Source: an uncultured bacterium
GTDB taxonomy: Bacteria > SAR324 > NAC60-12
Length of the DNA: 34,910 bases
NCBI GenBank assembly: GCA_964010765.1
Contig: CAXGMD010000033.1
Span: forward strand, 1 to 34,910
Direction: 5' to 3'
The position numbers and the translations under genes are program-made. This document shows positions 1,664 through 30,305 of the stretch, one piece after another. The notes below the pieces were generated by a model, which did no database searches, had not been told where the DNA came from, and saw only the letters and a list, made by a program, of their open reading frames with translations. Position 1 is the stretch's first letter. Every line of letters begins with the position of its first letter.

Positions 1664-3895
<2,232 letters not shown>

Positions 3896-3966
3896 TCATG
3901 GACAGGATCTAAAACCCTGCCGTTGGCTGACGTCTTGGGGGGACTTCCCCTTCTGTCGCTCTTTAT

Positions 3967-4419
3967 TTACTGGGGTAGTGCTCTGCCGTCCCTGATCTTG
4001 CTTGGCTCGGCGAGACAGTTCGCACAGTGTCCCCAGTAGATGACCTCTGCTTCATCGATTTCGTAGCCCATGCTTTCACTTGGACTCAGGCAAGGAGTGA
4101 AACCGACTGCGCAGTCGATGTCGACCATGTGGTTGCAGGACCGGCAAACTAGGTGATGGTGATTATCGCCCACACGATCTTCGTAGCGGGCTGGAGATCC
4201 AGCAGGTTGAATACGCCGAACCAATCTTCGTTCGACCAAGATACCTAAGGCATCGTACACAGCCTGTTTAGAAATTACACCCAATTCTGCTCTGACTACC
4301 TCGGCAACACCATCTGCCGTGATGTGAGGCTGTCCCGACACCGCTCGTAGGACAGCGATGCGTTGAACCGTCACCTGAACATCATGTTGGCGGAGCAGGT
4401 CCGCCAGTTCAGTAGCCAA
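3967..4419 (-). CDS. furA: Fur-family peroxide-responsive regulator, FurA type
   Basis: [28 protein letters not shown]...DCAVG..PCL......[15 protein letters not shown] is the FurA signature. TTG start with a GAGGAG RBS, directly upstream of katG. Confidence 0.93.
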
Positions 4420-6126: not shown

Positions 6127-7175
6127 TTACTCAGATGACGCAATACATCCTCTACCATATTGGGGCTACCGATGTAAAAAGGTACTCGCTGGTGCAGTTT
6201 TTGTGGCTCAATCTCCAGGATGCGCTGTGTTCCATCGCTCGCCATGCCTCCCGCTTGTTCAGCAAGCAGGGCCAGGGCGTTACACTCATACATCAGGCGT
6301 AGCTTGCCTTGGGGAGCCTTTTGAGTAGGTGGATACAGATAGATCCCACCCTTGAGCAGATTGCGGTGGAAGTCGGCGACCAAGGAACCAATGTAGCGAC
6401 CTTGAAAGTTCTGATCCCGACAAGATTCCAGATAGGCTTGGATTCGTGGACAGAAGTGATTGAAATTTCCTTCGTTACAAGAATAGATTTTTCCGTTGTC
6501 TGGAAAGCGTAGTTGTGTGTGCGAGAGGAAAAATTCCCCAAGAGATGGTTCGTAGGTGAAGGCATTCACGCCATGCCCAGTGGTCAGCACCAGGATGGTC
6601 GAAGATCCGTAGAGCACGTAACCGCTGGCTAACTGTTGAGAACCTGCCTGTAGTGCATCCTCCATGGTCGGGCTTGTACCACGCTGCGTACGTCTGCGGT
6701 AGATCGAGAAGATGGTGCCAATCGAGACATTGACGCCAATGTTGCTGGAACCATCCAACGGATCAATCGCAACCACGTACTTTGCCTGCTCATTACCGGT
6801 GTGGACCAGTTCATCTTCTTCCTCAGAGATGATGCAGCATACCATACCTCCCAGGCGCAAAGCTCGTGCGAAGCGAGTATTGGCAATCACATCCAGCTTC
6901 TGCTGATCTTCTCCCTGAATATTTTCTGCTCCGGCACTGCCTTCCAGGCTGATCAGTCCAGCTCGGTTGATGTCACGGTTGATGATCTTGGCGGCCAGAG
7001 ATATATCTGCAAGTAGCTGGGTGAAGTCCCCTTTTGCTTGGGGATAGTTTCGTTGCTCGTTGGCGATGAATCGCTGTAGCGTGACTCCAACGGGAGCAGA
7101 GAGTTGATTGATTGTTGAAATGACAGGCATTGGATGATCTGAGGAGGAATCAGGAGCGATGATTGGGTTCAACAT
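6123..7175 (-). CDS. fbp: Fructose-1,6-bisphosphatase class 1
   Basis: [42 protein letters not shown] and KLRLMYE motifs. The true start could be the internal Met near 7130. Confidence 0.97.
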
Positions 7176-7403
7176 AGCGCTGCCTCGCTAAATCGTAGGA
7201 AATAACGTACGATAAAATTTTTTCAAGCAAATCATCAAATACCGCGCCTTTCTGTCAGGAACTAAATTAAATTTTTAAAAAACAATCATGAAATCAAATA
7301 ATCCAGGGTGATTTATTAATTCATTTTGGATGAACTTAGAGGAAAGTGATTTGTCAGAATTGCTTCAGGTCATGGCAATCTATGAACGGTTCACCCATAC
7401 ATT

Positions 7404-7880
7404 TCACTCAAGCCTGTATACAGCACATTCTACTCTGGTGAAGCAGCGATATTCGACCAAGTGGAAGCCAAGCTTTTCGTAGAAACGCTGGGCTCGAGTG
7501 TTGGAAGCCATCGGATCAATCAGGACGGCATTCACCCTTTCATCAGCAAAGCAGCGTTCCAGTGCCAGTTCCATCATTTTCTTGCCAAACCCACGGCCAA
7601 TGTAAGCTTCTTCACCAATCCAGATGTCGATGGCTCGTAAGTTGTCCGGGCACTCTCCCCAGTAATGCTCCTCTTCCCGGGCTGGGTCAATGATCTGTAG
7701 AAAGCCAATCGGGATGCCTTCTACTTCGGCAATCAATTGTTCCCGCCAATCAGGTTGTCGATGGAGTTCCGTTTGCCAGCCCCAATCCCCCGTCCCCTTT
7801 GCTGCAATGACATGCGGAGCCTCATCCCACTGTTGTAGTAGTTCCAGATCGCTAAAGCTGGCTGGACGTAATTGGATCAT
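7404..7880 (-). CDS. GNAT N-acetyltransferase (AAC(6')/Acetyltransf_8-like)
   Basis: IDIWIGEEAYIGRGFG acetyl-CoA motif and DPMASNTRAQRFYEKLGF. Lies 30 nt downstream of the PCu(A)C gene. Confidence 0.88.
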   Translation of the reverse strand: MIQLRPASFSDLELLQQWDEAPHVIAAKGTGDWGWQTELHRQPDWREQLIAEVEGIPIGFLQIIDPAREEEHYWGECPDNLRAIDIWIGEEAYIGRGFGKKMMELALERCFADERVNAVLIDPMASNTRAQRFYEKLGFHLVEYRCFTRVECAVYRLE

Positions 7881-7910
7881 GTGATTTTATGAGGGCATTA
7901 GGTATTGCAT

Positions 7911-8423
7911 TTACTGGCTTTTGTGCGACTGGTGGTGATGCATCGAGGACTTTTCCTCACCTCCGGAAGTAGCCCCACTTTGCTGTACGGGCAACTCCAC
8001 GACCAAGTCTGGAGCTTGCCGAAACCGGAGGGTCAGCGTGTGTGATTCTCCAAGCTTAGGTGCCTGCTTCAAGTTGATCAGCATGATGTGATAGCCACCA
8101 GGTTTGAGCATCGCCATGCCCTTTGCAGGAATTTCAAGAGAATCCACAGGGTACATCTTCAGCATACCGTTCTCTTCCTTAACATTGTGGATCTCCACTA
8201 CTTCAGCCAGAGATGAACTGGCCCCAATCAGGGCATCTGCCTGATCCTGATGATTCATCACGGTCAGGTAGGCAGCTCCCATCTTGGCATTGGGAGGTGT
8301 CGCTCGAATCCAACCATTGGTGACCCCCATTTCAGCCATGGACTGCGCGAACACAACACCAATGCCCAGCATGAACAACAAGCTGATGAAGAATAAGCCA
8401 AATATTTTTGAAATTTGTTTCAT
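7911..8423 (-). CDS. Periplasmic copper chaperone PCu(A)C
   Basis: Signal peptide; WIRATPP..MGAAY; Cu motif H-x10-M...H-x-M (EIH...KM...PGGYHIML); His-rich tail MHHHQSH. Start placed at ATG 8423 (MKQISK). Confidence 0.95.
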   Translation of the reverse strand: MKQISKIFGLFFISLLFMLGIGVVFAQSMAEMGVTNGWIRATPPNAKMGAAYLTVMNHQDQADALIGASSSLAEVVEIHNVKEENGMLKMYPVDSLEIPAKGMAMLKPGGYHIMLINLKQAPKLGESHTLTLRFRQAPDLVVELPVQQSGATSGGEEKSSMHHHQSHKSQ

Positions 8424-8669
8424 TGTTGATTCTTTACCTAGGAGTAGTTGCTCCACAATTTGAACGTAACCTGAGCGCTAAAGCTCAGTCCTTCGGGCTC
8501 ACTGCAGAGAAAAATTGTGCACTCTCCTTGTTACTGCCCAGATGATCAAAGGACCTGAAGTGATCGAATCACAGGTAGCTATTGACACGGAGAGTATTTC
8601 GAAACATCTGATGTTCTTCAGAGTTTTAAGAAAAACAACAGGCGCTCAGTAAATTTTGGTAAGAATGGA

Positions 8670-9053
8670 TCAGAATCGAGGAGGAGCCCGCAGGGAAGCC
8701 AGACTCAGCCAGGCCTTCGCGATAAAAGGAGACTGGTAGGGGAGGTTACTAAGTATGTGGACGAGAACCGGCCCAAGGATTGGGGTCGTGGGGGGTAGAA
8801 CAAGTGTGGCGTTCCCAGCGTTCCAAGCTAGCAGCGCGGGGCACGGCTCTGTATCAGTAGAAACTGGAGTCAGTGGGAAGGGCAGACAGTCCAGGTGCTC
8901 TGCCAGATCTGCAGAGACAAAGGCGCCTGTTGGTGTGCGGAATCCATCCACATGCTGAACATGCACTGGGATCAAGCTGAGCCAGATCAGCAGCAGTACA
9001 GCCAGTGTTCCAGCAAAACTACGAAGATTTCTAGAACGATAACTTGTGCTCAT
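8670..9053 (-). CDS. DUF2946-like leader protein with a C-terminal RAPP motif (CruR/CutF-like)
   Basis: From ATG 9053, 127 aa: basic N-terminus, hydrophobic segment, HVQH, EHLDC...EPCP, Pro-rich linker, ending LRAPPRF*. Lies upstream of and codirectional with PCu(A)C. Confidence 0.75.
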   Translation of the reverse strand: MSTSYRSRNLRSFAGTLAVLLLIWLSLIPVHVQHVDGFRTPTGAFVSADLAEHLDCLPFPLTPVSTDTEPCPALLAWNAGNATLVLPPTTPILGPVLVHILSNLPYQSPFIAKAWLSLASLRAPPRF

Positions 9054-9272
9054 GCAACTGTTAGGGAAGGAAACCGTTATTAAAAAATTTATTTTTCCAA
9101 CTCTAGTGCACTCTCCAAAAAATTCTAGGATTTTTGAGTGAAATGAGAATTGGTTTGGTGGATCAATGAGCACATTCCGTAGTTGCAGTCGGTCATAGCG
9201 GTTGACTGGCAAACTCTTTTCATGGCCAGATGTGAATTTGTTTAAACCCTGATTCAGGAAGGAGCTGCCCCG

Positions 9273-9743
9273 ATGTCGATCTCTGTTCTCCCACGCCGTC
9301 GTCCATTGGTCACGGATGGAAGCATCGCTTCAATACATGGCTTGGAAATTGGTGCTGAACGCTCACTACCCATCTTCAGTATGGGAGTCTCTGCGGGTTT
9401 CCCTTCACCGGCAGAAGATCATCTGGAAGGACGCTTGGACCTCAATGAGCACCTGATTCCTCATCCTACCTCAACCTTCTTTGTCCGAGCCGCTGGAGAT
9501 TCAATGATCCAGGCTGGAATCTTCGACGGAGACCTGCTGGTAGTGGATCGCTCAATCGAGCAACGCAAGGGCCGGATTGTGATCGCTTCGCTGCATGGAG
9601 AGTTTACCCTCAAGCGGCTTTGGCAAGATGGAGGTCAAATCGAGTTGCGTCCAGAAAACGAAAATTATGAATCCATCCAAGTGACGGTAGATGATGCCTT
9701 TGCTGTCTGGGGAGTGGTGACCTATGTCATCCACAAGCTCTGA
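9273..9743 (+). CDS. umuD: DNA polymerase V accessory subunit UmuD (S24 peptidase)
   Basis: VSAG|FPSPA self-cleavage site, GDSM (Ser), FTLKRL (Lys), no DNA-binding domain. AAGGAG RBS. Confidence 0.95.
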   Translation: MSISVLPRRRPLVTDGSIASIHGLEIGAERSLPIFSMGVSAGFPSPAEDHLEGRLDLNEHLIPHPTSTFFVRAAGDSMIQAGIFDGDLLVVDRSIEQRKGRIVIASLHGEFTLKRLWQDGGQIELRPENENYESIQVTVDDAFAVWGVVTYVIHKL

Positions 9744-11261: not shown

Positions 11262-11840
11262 ATGGAACACCAACTCCCCGCCCTACCCTATGCCATGGAT
11301 GCCCTCGCACCACACATTTCTGCTGAGACCCTAGAGTTTCACTATGGCAAGCATCATCAAACCTATGTGACCAAGCTCAACGGTCTGATTCCCGGCACAG
11401 AATTCGAGAACATGTCCTTAGAAGATATTGTTGGCAAGTCCAGTGGTGGCGTTTTCAACAATGCAGCCCAGGTTTGGAATCATACCTTCTACTGGAACTG
11501 CCTGAGCCCCAATGGAGGTGGAGCACCCAATGACAAACTCGCTTCAGCGCTGCAGGGCTCCTTTGGCTCTGTTGATGCGTTCAAAGAGCAGTTCACCAAT
11601 TCGGCGGTCAACAACTTCGGCTCTGGATGGACCTGGCTGGTGCAGAATTCCGATGGCAAGCTGGCGCTGGAGAACACAAGCAATGCAGCAACTCCTCTGA
11701 CCGGAGCAAGCACACCATTGCTAACCTGTGATGTCTGGGAACACGCTTACTACATCGACTATCGCAACGCTCGTCCAAAGTATCTGGACGCCTTCTGGAA
11801 TCTCGTGAACTGGGACTTTGTTACAGACAACATGAGCTGA
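11262..11840 (+). CDS. sodB: Superoxide dismutase [Fe]
   Basis: [21 protein letters not shown] (AAQ marks the Fe type), FGSGW and DVWEHAYY motifs. Confidence 0.97.
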
Positions 11841-26593: not shown

Positions 26594-29500
26594 CTATTCG
26601 CGACGACCAACCATGGCGAAAGCACCCCAATAGAAGGGGCTGCTCCAGCGGAAGTCCTCAACCATTTCAAGACGAGCCTCTCGCATGGCTTCCCGTGGGG
26701 GAATACCGTCCAGGTATTTGTCGTAGAACTTGGTCATCAGGAGTTGAGTACCATCGTCAGAGACTTCCCAAAAGGAATTGATTACGGAGTCGACACCAGC
26801 TTCCTGGAAGGAGCGACGCAGACCATAGACTCCTTCACCTTCGTGAATCTCACCTAGGCCAGTTTCACAAGCGGATAGAATGACAAGTCGAGTACCAGTC
26901 AAGTTTAGGCTGAGCACCTCCATCGCAGTCAACACTCCGTCATTGTCTGTATCGATTTCACCCAACAGAGGAGCATTCGGATTCAACCCAGCAAAGGCCA
27001 ACCCAGCACGCAACAAGGGGTTATCTGCTGGAGGTGGGATTGGGTTTTGACTACCACGCTGCATACCCATGATGCGCTTGGCCAGCCGTTCCTGTTCTTT
27101 CAGAAAAAAACCATGGGTCGCAATGTGAAGAATCTCAGGAACCTTCTCAGCGTTGTAACTACGCAGCTCTTTCTCTTCGGCTGCAGCCCGAGTAAAAAAG
27201 ATTGTGCTGCGCTCCTTGTCGCCCACTACCTCTTCAATCACTTCACCTTCCTTCTCAGCTCCAGGAAGAGGACTGAAGTTTAGCCCACGTAGACCGTTAC
27301 CCATGCGAATGCCAGAGTTTACGGTTGCTGAACGCTTACTGGAAGCAACCATACGAGCTTCTGGAGAGTTACTGATCTCATCAGAATCATAGTCTGGACC
27401 CGCAATGATGAGCACATCACCCTCGGCAGGTTCCAGCGGATCGACCACCAAATCTCGAGCAGAACTGATTAACCGCAGATTCAGGGTCTCAATTAGGTAC
27501 TGGTCCTCAAAATCAACCAATGCGTCAAAGGGCAGCACATTCAGCACGCTGTCTGGGATCAGGAATATCGAATCCTTGTCTTCTAGAAATTCAGTGATTG
27601 GATCCCAGAGAGGCTCATAGAGTTCCTGGGCAATCGGTTTGATATCATCCTCAATGACAGTCACGTCCATCATGTAGTCACGCAACTCCATGATCATATC
27701 TTTGAATGGCTCCAGTTCTTCGTAATTGTAGAAGTGGAGTTCACCATCATTCAGGATAATGACACAGAGTGACCACTCATCGTTTTCATCACGATAGGCG
27801 AAAAAATCGACCAGTGCGTGTTCCTCACCGACAGCATCAAGCACATCTTCAACACTGACCTGCTGAATTGCCTGCCGAAAGACAGCGCTCGCTTCTCCTA
27901 GACGGAGTTGAAGGCTGTTGACCCTATTTTCGAGATCGTTGATCAACTCAGGAAAGTTGTTACGAGTTTCCGGAGTGGGACCAGAGAGCGTCAAGGCAGC
28001 CAACTCCTTGCGGGCAGCGGTTAACTCTTCCGTGATAACTTGTAACTCGGGAGAGTCTGCCATCTGAACTACCTGCTGAGTTTCACTGGTGATCTTCAGT
28101 AGCAGTCCCTTGCGCCGGAGGCTGATATCAAAAATATCTCGAGCAGTGCGTTCGTCATCTAATTCAATTAGCAGCCGAATGTAAGCATCTAGCTCAGGAC
28201 GATAGAGATTGATATAGGACTGACGGGTATTGTCACCAGCTACCCAGAGAATTCGGTTCAGAAATTCGTTACGGCGCTGATAGCCCAGCTGTCGTGTTTC
28301 GTAGGCGTCATCCAGATCTCCCATCTCCTGCTGGAGATTGGCCAGATTGTTCAAAGTCTCAAAGGTGTAAGGGTGCAATTCTCCAATGACCTTGCCCTGT
28401 AGCTCAAGTGTTTCCTGGAAAAGTTCCAGGGCCTCGTCTTCACGACCTTGTTCAACGTAGAGCACGGCGAGATCGTTCATACTACGCAGGACATCTTCGT
28501 GTTCCTGCCCTTCAAATAGTTCAGTACGCAGTTTGAGGGCGCGAACCAGAGTTTCTTCTGCTTGGTCCAGTTCGCCAAGTTGTGTTTGAACTCGGCCACT
28601 ATTGTTAAGCGCCTTGAGTGTATCCTGGTGCTTTTCTCCGTAGAGTTCCTTCCAGATTTCGTAAGCTTCGAGAAAATTGGTTTCTGCTTGTTCTGGTTTT
28701 TGGTCAATCAGGTAGAGGTAGGCCAGGTTGTTGATGCTGGCCACCGTGTTTGGATGAGTTGGACCGAAGACCTTTTTATTAAGTTCAATGACTTGCTGAT
28801 AGGTACGCTCCGCTCGGCTGAAGTCTCCCTGTGCCTCGTAGAGCATGGCAATGTTGTTGTTGAGCGCCAGTGAGGTTGGGTGCTCTGTGCCTTGCTCCAC
28901 TTGGGAAAGTGCCAGTGCTTTCTGGTAGAGTGGTTCCGCTTCGTCATAGAGTCCTTGGCTTTCCAGGACAAGAGCCAAGTTGTTCGTGATAGAGATGGTC
29001 TGAGGTGCACCTTCACCAAGTGCAGCGCTCATTGCTTGCAGTGCTTGTCGGTAGGTGGCTTCGGATTGCTGCAACTGGCCAAGCCGACGGTAAATGCCAG
29101 CCAGATTGTTCAGATCACCTGCTGTATTTGGATGGGCATCACCAAGAATTTGTTGATCGATTTCGTATACTTCTTGGTAATAGCGAAGGGATGCAACAAA
29201 GTTATTCGTATTTTCATAGAGTTGAGCAAGATGACTTTTCGCATTAATCACTAGTGGATCTGCAATTCCAAGTAGTTGCTCTGCCGTTGCGATCACTTCC
29301 AGGAACATTGGCTCCGCTTCATCGGGACGTCCCAATTGTCGGTACAACTCTGCCAATCGTTCCTTGGTTTCCAGCGTCTGTGTCTCCTCAGGTCCCTGAA
29401 CCTTTGTTCGTAGGGCATAACTCTGCTCCAGTGGTTCCAGAGCAGGGCGTAACTTGCCTTGGCGCTGATAGAGTTGCGCTAGGTCTTCCAGGACATTGAT

Positions 29501-30268
29501 TGTGGGTAACGCTTCTGCCCCAACTGCCGTCACGAGAGTTGCTTGAGCATCCTGTAAGCGCTGCTCTGCTAGTTCATAGCGTTGCAATTCCGCATCATTG
29601 TTTGCCAAGCTTTGTAAGCGCAGGGTGGTTCGGGGATCCTGTGCCCCCAAGGCTTCGGTAGATACAAGAAAGGCTTTTTCATAAACGACATCAGCCATCT
29701 CGTATTCACCCAACTCTGCAAAGAATCCTCCGTACTGATCAAGAATCTGCAAAACGATGTTCGAGTTGGTGCCCTGCTGCTCCATGGCGATGACCAGAGT
29801 CTCCTGGTAGAGTTCATTGGCAATTTCTAGTTCTCCCAGTTCTCCATACAGCAGTGCCTGGAGTAAATAAGCCCGAAGGGTTCGTTCATCTCGTAGTCCG
29901 AAGTGTTGATCTGCCAACTCACGAGCTTGTAGAGCCTTGTTCAGGCTGTTTTCCAGTTCCCCAAATTCATATTCCTGCATCGCCTGATCAAAGATTTTTT
30001 TCCAATCACGAGCCAGCTCAACAGGATCAATGGTGGTCTCTTCAGTAGCTGCGGTGTCTGGCAGTTCAGACTGTACAGATGCAGCCTGGGTTTCTGCCTC
30101 CTTTACTGTGGATTCAGTACGCTGGAGCGCATCCTCAACCTGCTGTAGTGCATTCTGGGTCTCCGACAGAGCTTTTTCACTTTGCTCATTTTCTTGTGCA
30201 ATTGCCCAACTATGGGTCAGCAGATAACTGACACAGAACACGACAAAGGCTCGTTGGCGCAGCAGCAT
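26594..30268 (-). CDS. Exported TPR-CHAT (caspase-like) protease
   Basis: Signal peptide (WAIA|QE); a dozen or more ~42-aa TPRs (HPxTxxxxNNLA); CHAT domain with LHIATHG (His), LSACETG (Cys), SFWEVSD and PFYWGAF. AAGGAGG RBS supports ATG 30268. Confidence 0.93.
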   Translation of the reverse strand: MLLRQRAFVVFCVSYLLTHSWAIAQENEQSEKALSETQNALQQVEDALQRTESTVKEAETQAASVQSELPDTAATEETTIDPVELARDWKKIFDQAMQEYEFGELENSLNKALQARELADQHFGLRDERTLRAYLLQALLYGELGELEIANELYQETLVIAMEQQGTNSNIVLQILDQYGGFFAELGEYEMADVVYEKAFLVSTEALGAQDPRTTLRLQSLANNDAELQRYELAEQRLQDAQATLVTAVGAEALPTINVLEDLAQLYQRQGKLRPALEPLEQSYALRTKVQGPEETQTLETKERLAELYRQLGRPDEAEPMFLEVIATAEQLLGIADPLVINAKSHLAQLYENTNNFVASLRYYQEVYEIDQQILGDAHPNTAGDLNNLAGIYRRLGQLQQSEATYRQALQAMSAALGEGAPQTISITNNLALVLESQGLYDEAEPLYQKALALSQVEQGTEHPTSLALNNNIAMLYEAQGDFSRAERTYQQVIELNKKVFGPTHPNTVASINNLAYLYLIDQKPEQAETNFLEAYEIWKELYGEKHQDTLKALNNSGRVQTQLGELDQAEETLVRALKLRTELFEGQEHEDVLRSMNDLAVLYVEQGREDEALELFQETLELQGKVIGELHPYTFETLNNLANLQQEMGDLDDAYETRQLGYQRRNEFLNRILWVAGDNTRQSYINLYRPELDAYIRLLIELDDERTARDIFDISLRRKGLLLKITSETQQVVQMADSPELQVITEELTAARKELAALTLSGPTPETRNNFPELINDLENRVNSLQLRLGEASAVFRQAIQQVSVEDVLDAVGEEHALVDFFAYRDENDEWSLCVIILNDGELHFYNYEELEPFKDMIMELRDYMMDVTVIEDDIKPIAQELYEPLWDPITEFLEDKDSIFLIPDSVLNVLPFDALVDFEDQYLIETLNLRLISSARDLVVDPLEPAEGDVLIIAGPDYDSDEISNSPEARMVASSKRSATVNSGIRMGNGLRGLNFSPLPGAEKEGEVIEEVVGDKERSTIFFTRAAAEEKELRSYNAEKVPEILHIATHGFFLKEQERLAKRIMGMQRGSQNPIPPPADNPLLRAGLAFAGLNPNAPLLGEIDTDNDGVLTAMEVLSLNLTGTRLVILSACETGLGEIHEGEGVYGLRRSFQEAGVDSVINSFWEVSDDGTQLLMTKFYDKYLDGIPPREAMREARLEMVEDFRWSSPFYWGAFAMVGRRE

Positions 30269-30305
30269 TTGGCCTCCTTGAACCGGCATTCTTGACAAAG
30301 GGGGA

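Follow-up and report, generated by a model that had tools for sequence, protein, structure and literature searches.

The 127-residue reading frame upstream of a periplasmic copper chaperone gene in this SAR324 bacterium is a real, protein-coding gene, and very probably encodes a ribosome-arrest leader. Copper is probably its main signal, and it is reasonably likely that the chaperone, PCu(A)C, is switched on when copper is low. Taking these points together, we lean slightly towards a cis-acting, membrane-targeted leader resembling CruR, which would tie PCu(A)C synthesis to the copper supply. The features below lie in the window, the whole 34,910-nucleotide stretch of DNA that we analysed.

7404–7880, minus strand: GNAT acetyltransferase (Acetyltransf_8, E 6e-25), ATG at 7880, 30 nt past the PCu(A)C stop (7911)
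7911–8423, minus strand: PCu(A)C periplasmic copper chaperone (PF04314), 170 aa, His-rich tail; the likely regulated gene
8424–8669, minus strand: intergenic region between leader and PCu(A)C, 246 nt, several predicted hairpins
8670–9053, minus strand: leader ORF, 127 aa, a CruR/CutF-like (DUF2946-like) arrest peptide judged by conservation and motif rarity
8679–8690, minus strand: RAPP codons, R122–P125, with the PP codons at 8684–8679
8735–8812, minus strand: C-rich, G-poor stretch in the leader (35 C and 10 G in 78 nt), a possible Rho loading site
8841–8843, minus strand: codon of C71, the anchor Cys, 51 residues N-terminal of the arrest Arg, R122
8886–8888, minus strand: codon of C56, in a C-x-P-F-P motif; second Cys, HVQH sub-type only
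8952–8963, minus strand: H31-V-Q-H34, His pair at the outer end of the helix, putative metal ligands by their invariance
8964–9017, minus strand: hydrophobic helix, residues 13–30, signal anchor or signal peptide by hydropathy and fold model
9122–9149, minus strand: sigma-70-like match, 70 nt upstream of the leader start codon, a consensus match only

The leader runs from an ATG at 9053 to a TGA at 8670 and ends LRAPPRF. The initial annotation had described a 127-aa ORF with a signal or transmembrane segment, HVQH, EHLDC-x14-CP and a proline-rich linker, and the sequence reads as it claimed (EHLDC56-x14-C71P, with 11 prolines in residues 57–110); its distances, 246 nt from leader stop to chaperone ATG and 30 nt from chaperone stop to GNAT ATG, also follow from the coordinates. 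The RAPP that it had placed at the C-terminus is present at residues 122–125 but is C-proximal, not the last four residues, as RF follows P125. RAPP and the Cys and His residues, on whose conservation that reading depended, are kept in orthologues: RAPP in 25 of 26 close homologues (72–99% identity), the exception having a frameshifted tail, and H31, H34, C56 and C71 in all 27 close sequences. Mean dN was 0.066 and dS 0.29 over 16 coding sequences (six genomes and 10 of 13 metagenome loci, with two near-identical loci and one cut locus excluded), indicating purifying selection, and dN was lowest, 0.029, in the last 15 codons (113–127). The two other sense frames contain stops in 16/16 sequences.

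The end motif is rare elsewhere in the genome. RAPP does not occur in its ORFs of at least 300 aa (7.2 expected) and RGPP occurs once (6.7 expected), while R[AG]PP within the last 15 residues is found in one of 10,468 mechanical ORFs of 60–299 aa, the leader itself, against six for the control A[AG]PP. By analogy with the CruR toeprints in the passages seen of PMC12992588, the predicted stall would place P124 (8684–8682) in the P site and P125 (8681–8679) in the A site. At the other end of the protein the 19-mer Kyte-Doolittle mean reaches 2.05 over residues ~13–30, with a basic N-region before the helix, and the fold model has a helix at 3–31 (pLDDT ~89 at residues 11–20). We saw no A-x-A cleavage site by eye at the N-terminus, so the helix may be an uncleaved anchor. 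Overall the structure model is poor (mean pLDDT 65.6, pTM 0.31) and does not show how the putative metal site is arranged; it had no PDB fold match at E ≤0.001.

The kinship with DUF2946 proteins on which the initial annotation leant was not borne out by the profile itself. The leader did not match Pfam DUF2946 (PF11162; gathering cut-off 23.7 bits) at E up to 10, nor any other family in Pfam or NCBIfam, and its relatives scored 11.6–22.3 bits, all below the cut-off (14.4 for the HVQH-type leader of genome G016, 18.4 for G021 and 22.3 for protein P0053). DUF2946 was nevertheless matched below cut-off by seven of 42 aligned members (best E 2e-4), no other Pfam family being matched by more than one, and in six-frame DUF2946 searches the best match in the genome was the leader for G021 and for G016 (HVQH sub-type), though not for the leader's own genome. 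CxxC is absent, C56-x14-C71 being the only Cys arrangement, while the CruR-type spacing from Cys to RAPP is present, C71 lying 51 residues before R122. The leader is probably a remote DUF2946 homologue, even though it falls short of the formal definition in both score and CxxC.

A second definition describes the leader better. CutF-like proteins were delimited in PMC9973294, as far as its passages covered here go, by a length below 150 aa, PP in the last 15 residues and a same-strand next gene within 1,000 nt, and the leader has 127 aa, PP at 124–125 and a gap of 246 nt; it also has the putative Cys/His metal site and the downstream metal-homeostasis gene. In a language-model atlas the leader lay nearest to clusters named DUF6769 and DUF2946 (0.93–0.94), which is a lead only. 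The nearest named clusters by these features were DUF6769 (PF20558; 0.94, 24/30 matches), a Bacteroidota family often named DUF2946 domain-containing; it gave no HMM match to the leader and shared 105–112 of 256 features, again no more than a lead.

The chaperone gene is well supported. It matches PF04314 at E 3e-37 from an ATG at 8423, and the protein has the complete H-x10-M-x21-H-x-M motif reported for PCu(A)C (PMC7558416). Within the genus the intergenic region before it is conserved in length (243–246 nt) and sequence. A promoter and terminator scan found no promoter-like or terminator-like match in these 246 nt, and an Rfam scan of 7000–9500 gave no match at E up to 1, so no known riboswitch lies there. 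Sigma-70-like matches such as that upstream of the leader occur at chance level (four found, 2.7 expected). RNA contigs, from four of 24 listed runs, cover the locus evenly and in three runs also span the divergent intergenic region, so DNA carry-over is possible and the contigs are uninformative on transcription. The contigs of the four runs diverge at 7887–7936, the PCu(A)C/GNAT junction, indicating strains with other sequence there.

We rejected the GNAT gene as part of the regulated unit, and with it the PCu(A)C-GNAT unit of the initial annotation. Of the 14 informative loci in the close clade, 12 have it behind PCuAC, four of these with stop codons, and two lack it; in other genera we saw none downstream of the leader operons within the DNA retrieved. 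As it is broken or missing in 6/14 loci, and is not seen in that DNA from other genera, it is a passenger. The protein is remotely AAC(6')-like, far under every curated cut-off. Elsewhere in the window a UmuD/UmuC-like pair lies divergently upstream of the leader, and oxidative-stress genes flank the locus (1664–4419 and 11262–11840), with a Fur/PerR-like regulator directly before a two-domain catalase-peroxidase-like peroxidase and an Fe/Mn superoxide dismutase nearby. A TPR and CHAT (caspase-like) protein of 1,234 aa is encoded at 26594–30298 on the minus strand.

The leader belongs to a wider family. A PCu(A)C search matched in 24 of 41 genomes, and six-frame scanning around these loci revealed similar leaders in other genera. 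A profile built from eight leaders matched in 19 of 88 genomes of the phylum, at 21 loci, and all 19 belong to the family of the leader's own genome, of whose other members 18/44 have a match. All 20 complete leaders end in R[AG]PP and have a Cys 48–52 residues before the Arg, although these counts are not independent, as the profile contains the Cys and RAPP columns and many of the loci are close kin. In contrast to this fixed distance, that from the His pair to the Arg ranges from 86 to 117 residues (G021 excluded). In CruR, according to the passages of PMC9426467 covered, C90 lies 49 and C93 46 residues before the Arg (R139), and changing the spacing by five residues damages regulation. Because its spacing to the Arg is as that of C90, C71 corresponds in position to the first Cys of the CxxC. 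Across 42 aligned sequences H31 is invariant and H34 is conserved in at least 90%, which makes the two likely metal ligands; H53 was rejected as a ligand beyond the close clade, as it is not conserved family-wide.

Two sub-types can be distinguished. Members of the HVQH sub-type combine HVQH with C-x-P-F-P and a second Cys, and most carry RAPP; they are the close clade, the G001 leader, protein P0059, the second G016 copy and G023 (with HWVH). Both Cys are invariant in the sub-type, including in three further lineages and one more protein, with 14, 15, 15, 20 or 29 residues between them. The His-rich sub-type is marked by HWVHH or HSVHH, a loop rich in His, a single Cys and RGPP; C56 is absent, and some of its leaders have another Cys 3–4 residues on. 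The earlier proposal that two distant Cys plus His residues replace CxxC thus holds within the HVQH sub-type, while family-wide only H31, H34 and C71 remain.

Similar proteins occur outside the phylum. Searching 1.84 billion representative sequences returned 27 proteins, 24 with the end motif, of which 23 have a Cys 47–52 residues before it. Five of the 27 form a group with APHRVHH, for which we found nine loci in deltaproteobacterial, Binatia and other genomes; eight are complete, and the Cys is at 48 in all eight. These counts, too, depend on a profile that includes the columns counted, and related loci among them are not independent. The profiles of the HVQH sub-type and this group compare weakly (probability 14.9%, E 0.0018), with the His pair, Cys and RAPP aligned. 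At these loci (L067–L075) the APHRVHH-Cys-RAPP leaders head genes for a BNR-repeat protein and a TlpA-like thioredoxin, except at L074, where a YtkA-like and a di-haem peroxidase gene follow; L068 is apparently frameshifted, and L069 has a further downstream ORF (6939–7541) with a similar PHRVHH after a hydrophobic stretch.

A leader without CxxC might simply be degenerate, stalling constitutively or acting as a small membrane protein while PCu(A)C is expressed from its own promoter. The missing DUF2946 match would suit this, as would our failure to find a conserved switch structure, but H31, H34 and C71 are kept with their spacing across genera at ~20–25% identity, and the intergenic region holds no promoter-like match. 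We regard a degenerate leader as very unlikely.

The genes behind the leaders point to copper. The leaders head copper-handling genes in 19/19 informative loci (of 21; two end at a contig edge), which supports the link between RAPP leaders without CxxC and copper genes that the initial annotation had proposed. The first genes are PCuAC in 12 loci, SCO then PCuAC in four, an ABC transporter then PCuAC in one, MbnP-MbnH in one and a cupredoxin-like gene in one, PCuAC having been called at some loci by search match and at others by visible motif. The cupredoxin-like gene, behind the G059 leader, is a weak Pfam match; the MbnP-MbnH locus is in G016 and the ABC transporter locus in G001. Both these leaders are of the HVQH sub-type: the G016 leader (L053:4715–7584, G016:C91) heads MbnP and MbnH, which score above the NCBIfam cut-offs, and the G001 leader (L052:2133–5586, G001:C4) heads an SsuA/TauA-like binding protein, a permease and an ATPase, then PCu(A)C. 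The closest solved structure to this binding protein is 3hn0 (E 1e-10), and the SsuA/TauA-type transporter is a candidate inner-membrane importer of copper or a copper chelate. With these queries we found neither the binding protein, the permease nor MbnP in the leader's own genome, which is 92% complete. At one locus (L011:186–1971, G018) the leader lies inside the unit, 16 nt after the SCO gene and before PCu(A)C.

The leader's own genome encodes Rho, heme-copper oxidase subunit I and SCO, and two further leaders. The second (G000:C125:4465–4815, minus strand; L059:1489–1839) has 116 aa and a canonical CxxC (CDDC), ends RPPQRLRF and matches DUF2946 at E 0.0076; it heads genes for an outer-membrane efflux protein, a Tat multicopper oxidase and a cupredoxin, with a CopD gene upstream. 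As this is a copper-resistance unit, its regulation probably has the sign of CutF. The third (G000:C142:685–1038, minus strand; L094) has 118 aa, is His-rich, ends RLDRPPKA and is followed ~130 nt on by a gene for HupE/UreJ (PF13795, E 3.5e-40), which fits the His-rich clusters linked to Ni/Co in the passages of PMC9973294 covered. The genome's second PCu(A)C domain (G000:C91:2294–2644, L028) lies C-terminally in a 325-aa frame whose N-terminal part is charged, and no RAPP leader was flagged within 1.5 kb of it.

These leaders also bear on whether the arrest peptide might read something other than copper: zinc, nickel or cobalt bound by the His pair, the redox state of the periplasm sensed by the Cys, or the capacity for Sec export. 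His-only CutF-like clusters do precede Ni/Co genes in PMC9973294, as far as its passages covered go, the remote HxxH-Cys relatives head BNR-repeat and thioredoxin-like genes, and the first gene of the G001 operon encodes a binding protein of the SsuA/TauA type. However, every informative operon in the SAR324 family contains a copper chaperone or copper-binding gene, and in the leader's own genome HupE/UreJ is preceded by a His-only leader of its own. A non-copper signal seems quite unlikely.

The favoured CruR-like reading would work in four steps. The conserved helix and motif belong to a gene that is itself conserved, and the helix would send the translating ribosome to the Sec translocon. 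The ribosome would then stall at RAPP, as in ApdA, ApdP and CruR. Judged by its spacing, C71 would at that moment be just clear of the tunnel and membrane, beside H31 and H34: about 30 residues occupy the tunnel and 17 cross the membrane (PMC9973294, passages covered), putting C71 at the periplasmic mouth of the translocon near the His pair. Copper bound by H31, H34 and C71 (and C56 in the HVQH sub-type) would close a loop and alter the pull on the nascent chain, the loop between the His pair and C71 being free in length; a clamp of this kind predicts a constant Cys-to-stall distance and an unconstrained loop. Finally, going by gene content, the stall would persist without copper and the chaperone would be made, whereas with copper the ribosome would run off and the downstream message be shut down, most plausibly by Rho-dependent termination in the intergenic region.

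The C-rich stretch within the leader is unusual, its 35 C and 10 G being rarer than 0.02% of coding windows and its C>G skew being reached by 0.3% of gene ends. However, synonymous codon resampling gave p 0.15 for the skew (below 0.05 in one of 16 leaders), so that the encoded amino acids explain it; the stretch is a possible Rho site.

The polarity of the response is a separate matter. CruR and CutF act with opposite sign (10.1101/2025.02.05.636593, as far as covered), so family likeness does not fix it. We infer CruR polarity because the downstream genes encode delivery chaperones, and it is when copper is low that PCuAC and Sco are most important, according to the passages seen of PMC7558416. 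With CutF polarity the leader would instead be a disulfide switch: without copper the pull of a periplasmic C56-C71 disulfide would release the stall, whereas copper would block the disulfide and so keep the ribosome stalled, which would free a sequestered ribosome-binding site and raise chaperone synthesis. A stall with a disulfide-versus-copper model has been proposed for CutF (Ozturk 2025, 10.1101/2025.02.05.636593, passages covered), and the two Cys are invariant in the HVQH sub-type. Long-range pairing between leader codons and the start region is also predicted, with opening energy changed by −3.6 to −5.4 kcal/mol under a two-ribosome footprint in 3/16 sequences, and down 3.8 under one ribosome in G023. 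In the leader's own genome, however, the start region is no easier to open under the footprint (+0.7; 5.1 to 7.9), and opening energy drops by more than 2 kcal/mol in only one of 18 loci, while a stalled ribosome could not reach directly across the 246-nt gap. The disulfide is impossible in many sister leaders that precede these genes, as each of them has just one Cys, and the genes downstream are for delivering copper rather than for detoxification. Such a switch is unlikely here. A stalled ribosome opening a stem-loop over the ribosome-binding site is not supported for this locus by the folding predictions. We did not take consensus folds of the intergenic region as evidence either, as double changes occurred in 3/82 and 3/77 pairs and the two runs gave different long-range helices.

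CruR is among the closest known systems. In the passages of PMC9426467 covered, CruR (Bp2923 of Bordetella pertussis), like the leader, is the first gene of a copper-supply unit, has an export signal (putative in the leader), a RAPP two to three residues from its end, Cys ~49–51 residues before the Arg, a C-rich 3' part and a long intergenic region (162 nt against 246 nt), and PCuAC, Sco, MbnPH and AhpC-TSA genes lie behind its homologues (Roy 2022, PMC9426467). Its arrest has been shown by toeprint (PMC12992588, passages covered). Unlike CruR, the leader lacks CxxC, the anchor position being held by one Cys, with another Cys 15 residues upstream and the His pair following the helix, and it has neither a Pfam match nor a TonB-dependent transporter; moreover, the signal peptide of CruR is dispensable, whereas the model proposed here needs the helix. 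CutF of Rhodobacter capsulatus and the CutF-like clusters share with the leader small size, Sec targeting (predicted for the leader), a Pro-rich end and, in CutF-like proteins, a Cys/His site ~45–50 residues upstream of the end (PMC9973294, passages covered). CutF differs, in what was seen of 10.1101/2025.02.05.636593, in its CxxxC and PPP end and in freeing a nearby SD hairpin, through which copper switches on an oxidase for detoxification; for the leader, folding predicts no hairpin release of this sort.

Much of this ground is already published: the leader class, its pairing with PCu(A)C, sites other than CxxC and the principle of copper sensing. Within the passages covered, Ozturk 2023 (PMC9973294) described 29 CutF-like clusters, whose sites contain Cys, His or both and for which PCuAC is one of the most common neighbours, and Fujiwara 2025 (PMC12992588) counted 1,444 RAPP uORFs upstream of PCu(A)C, 32-fold over AAPP. 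A 127-aa ortholog that precedes a PCu(A)C gene is entered in row 419 of the latter's Fig. 4B list; it is identical to the leader at 107 of 127 residues (84%, by hand count), and appears in the passages seen as a table row only. The same paper shows that SLIV_16130 of Streptomyces lividans, with two distant Cys (48 and 66) and His, arrests in vitro; we liken it to the leader by layout only. We found no literature on a SAR324 leader or an HxxH-plus-single-Cys site, although the uncovered parts of the PMC9973294 and PMC12992588 supplements may list the pattern. The lineage-specific novelty first claimed for the leader thus reduces to what is new, the split ligand layout and its spacing rule.

It is possible, though we put it forward only tentatively, that these leaders form an undescribed branch of arrest peptides built around a two-part clamp, spanning SAR324 and the Binatia and deltaproteobacteria. 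The His pair, fixed where an uncleaved helix ends on its outer side, and one Cys, set at a constant distance from the stall, would be joined only in the translocon-engaged stalled state, where copper would cross-link the start of the chain to the part leaving the channel. In the HVQH type the second Cys could switch between disulfide and copper, and the branch would mark the G001 transporter as a candidate importer.

The fixed distance from Cys to stall, with a free loop from His to Cys, is a sharp and testable prediction. If the reading is true, the family provides a natural experiment on how metal binding alters the force on a stalled chain, a question raised by CruR and CutF, and the leaders serve as flags for candidate copper-supply genes. 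Copper sensing during translation would then also extend to SAR324, a marine group that is abundant and uncultured.
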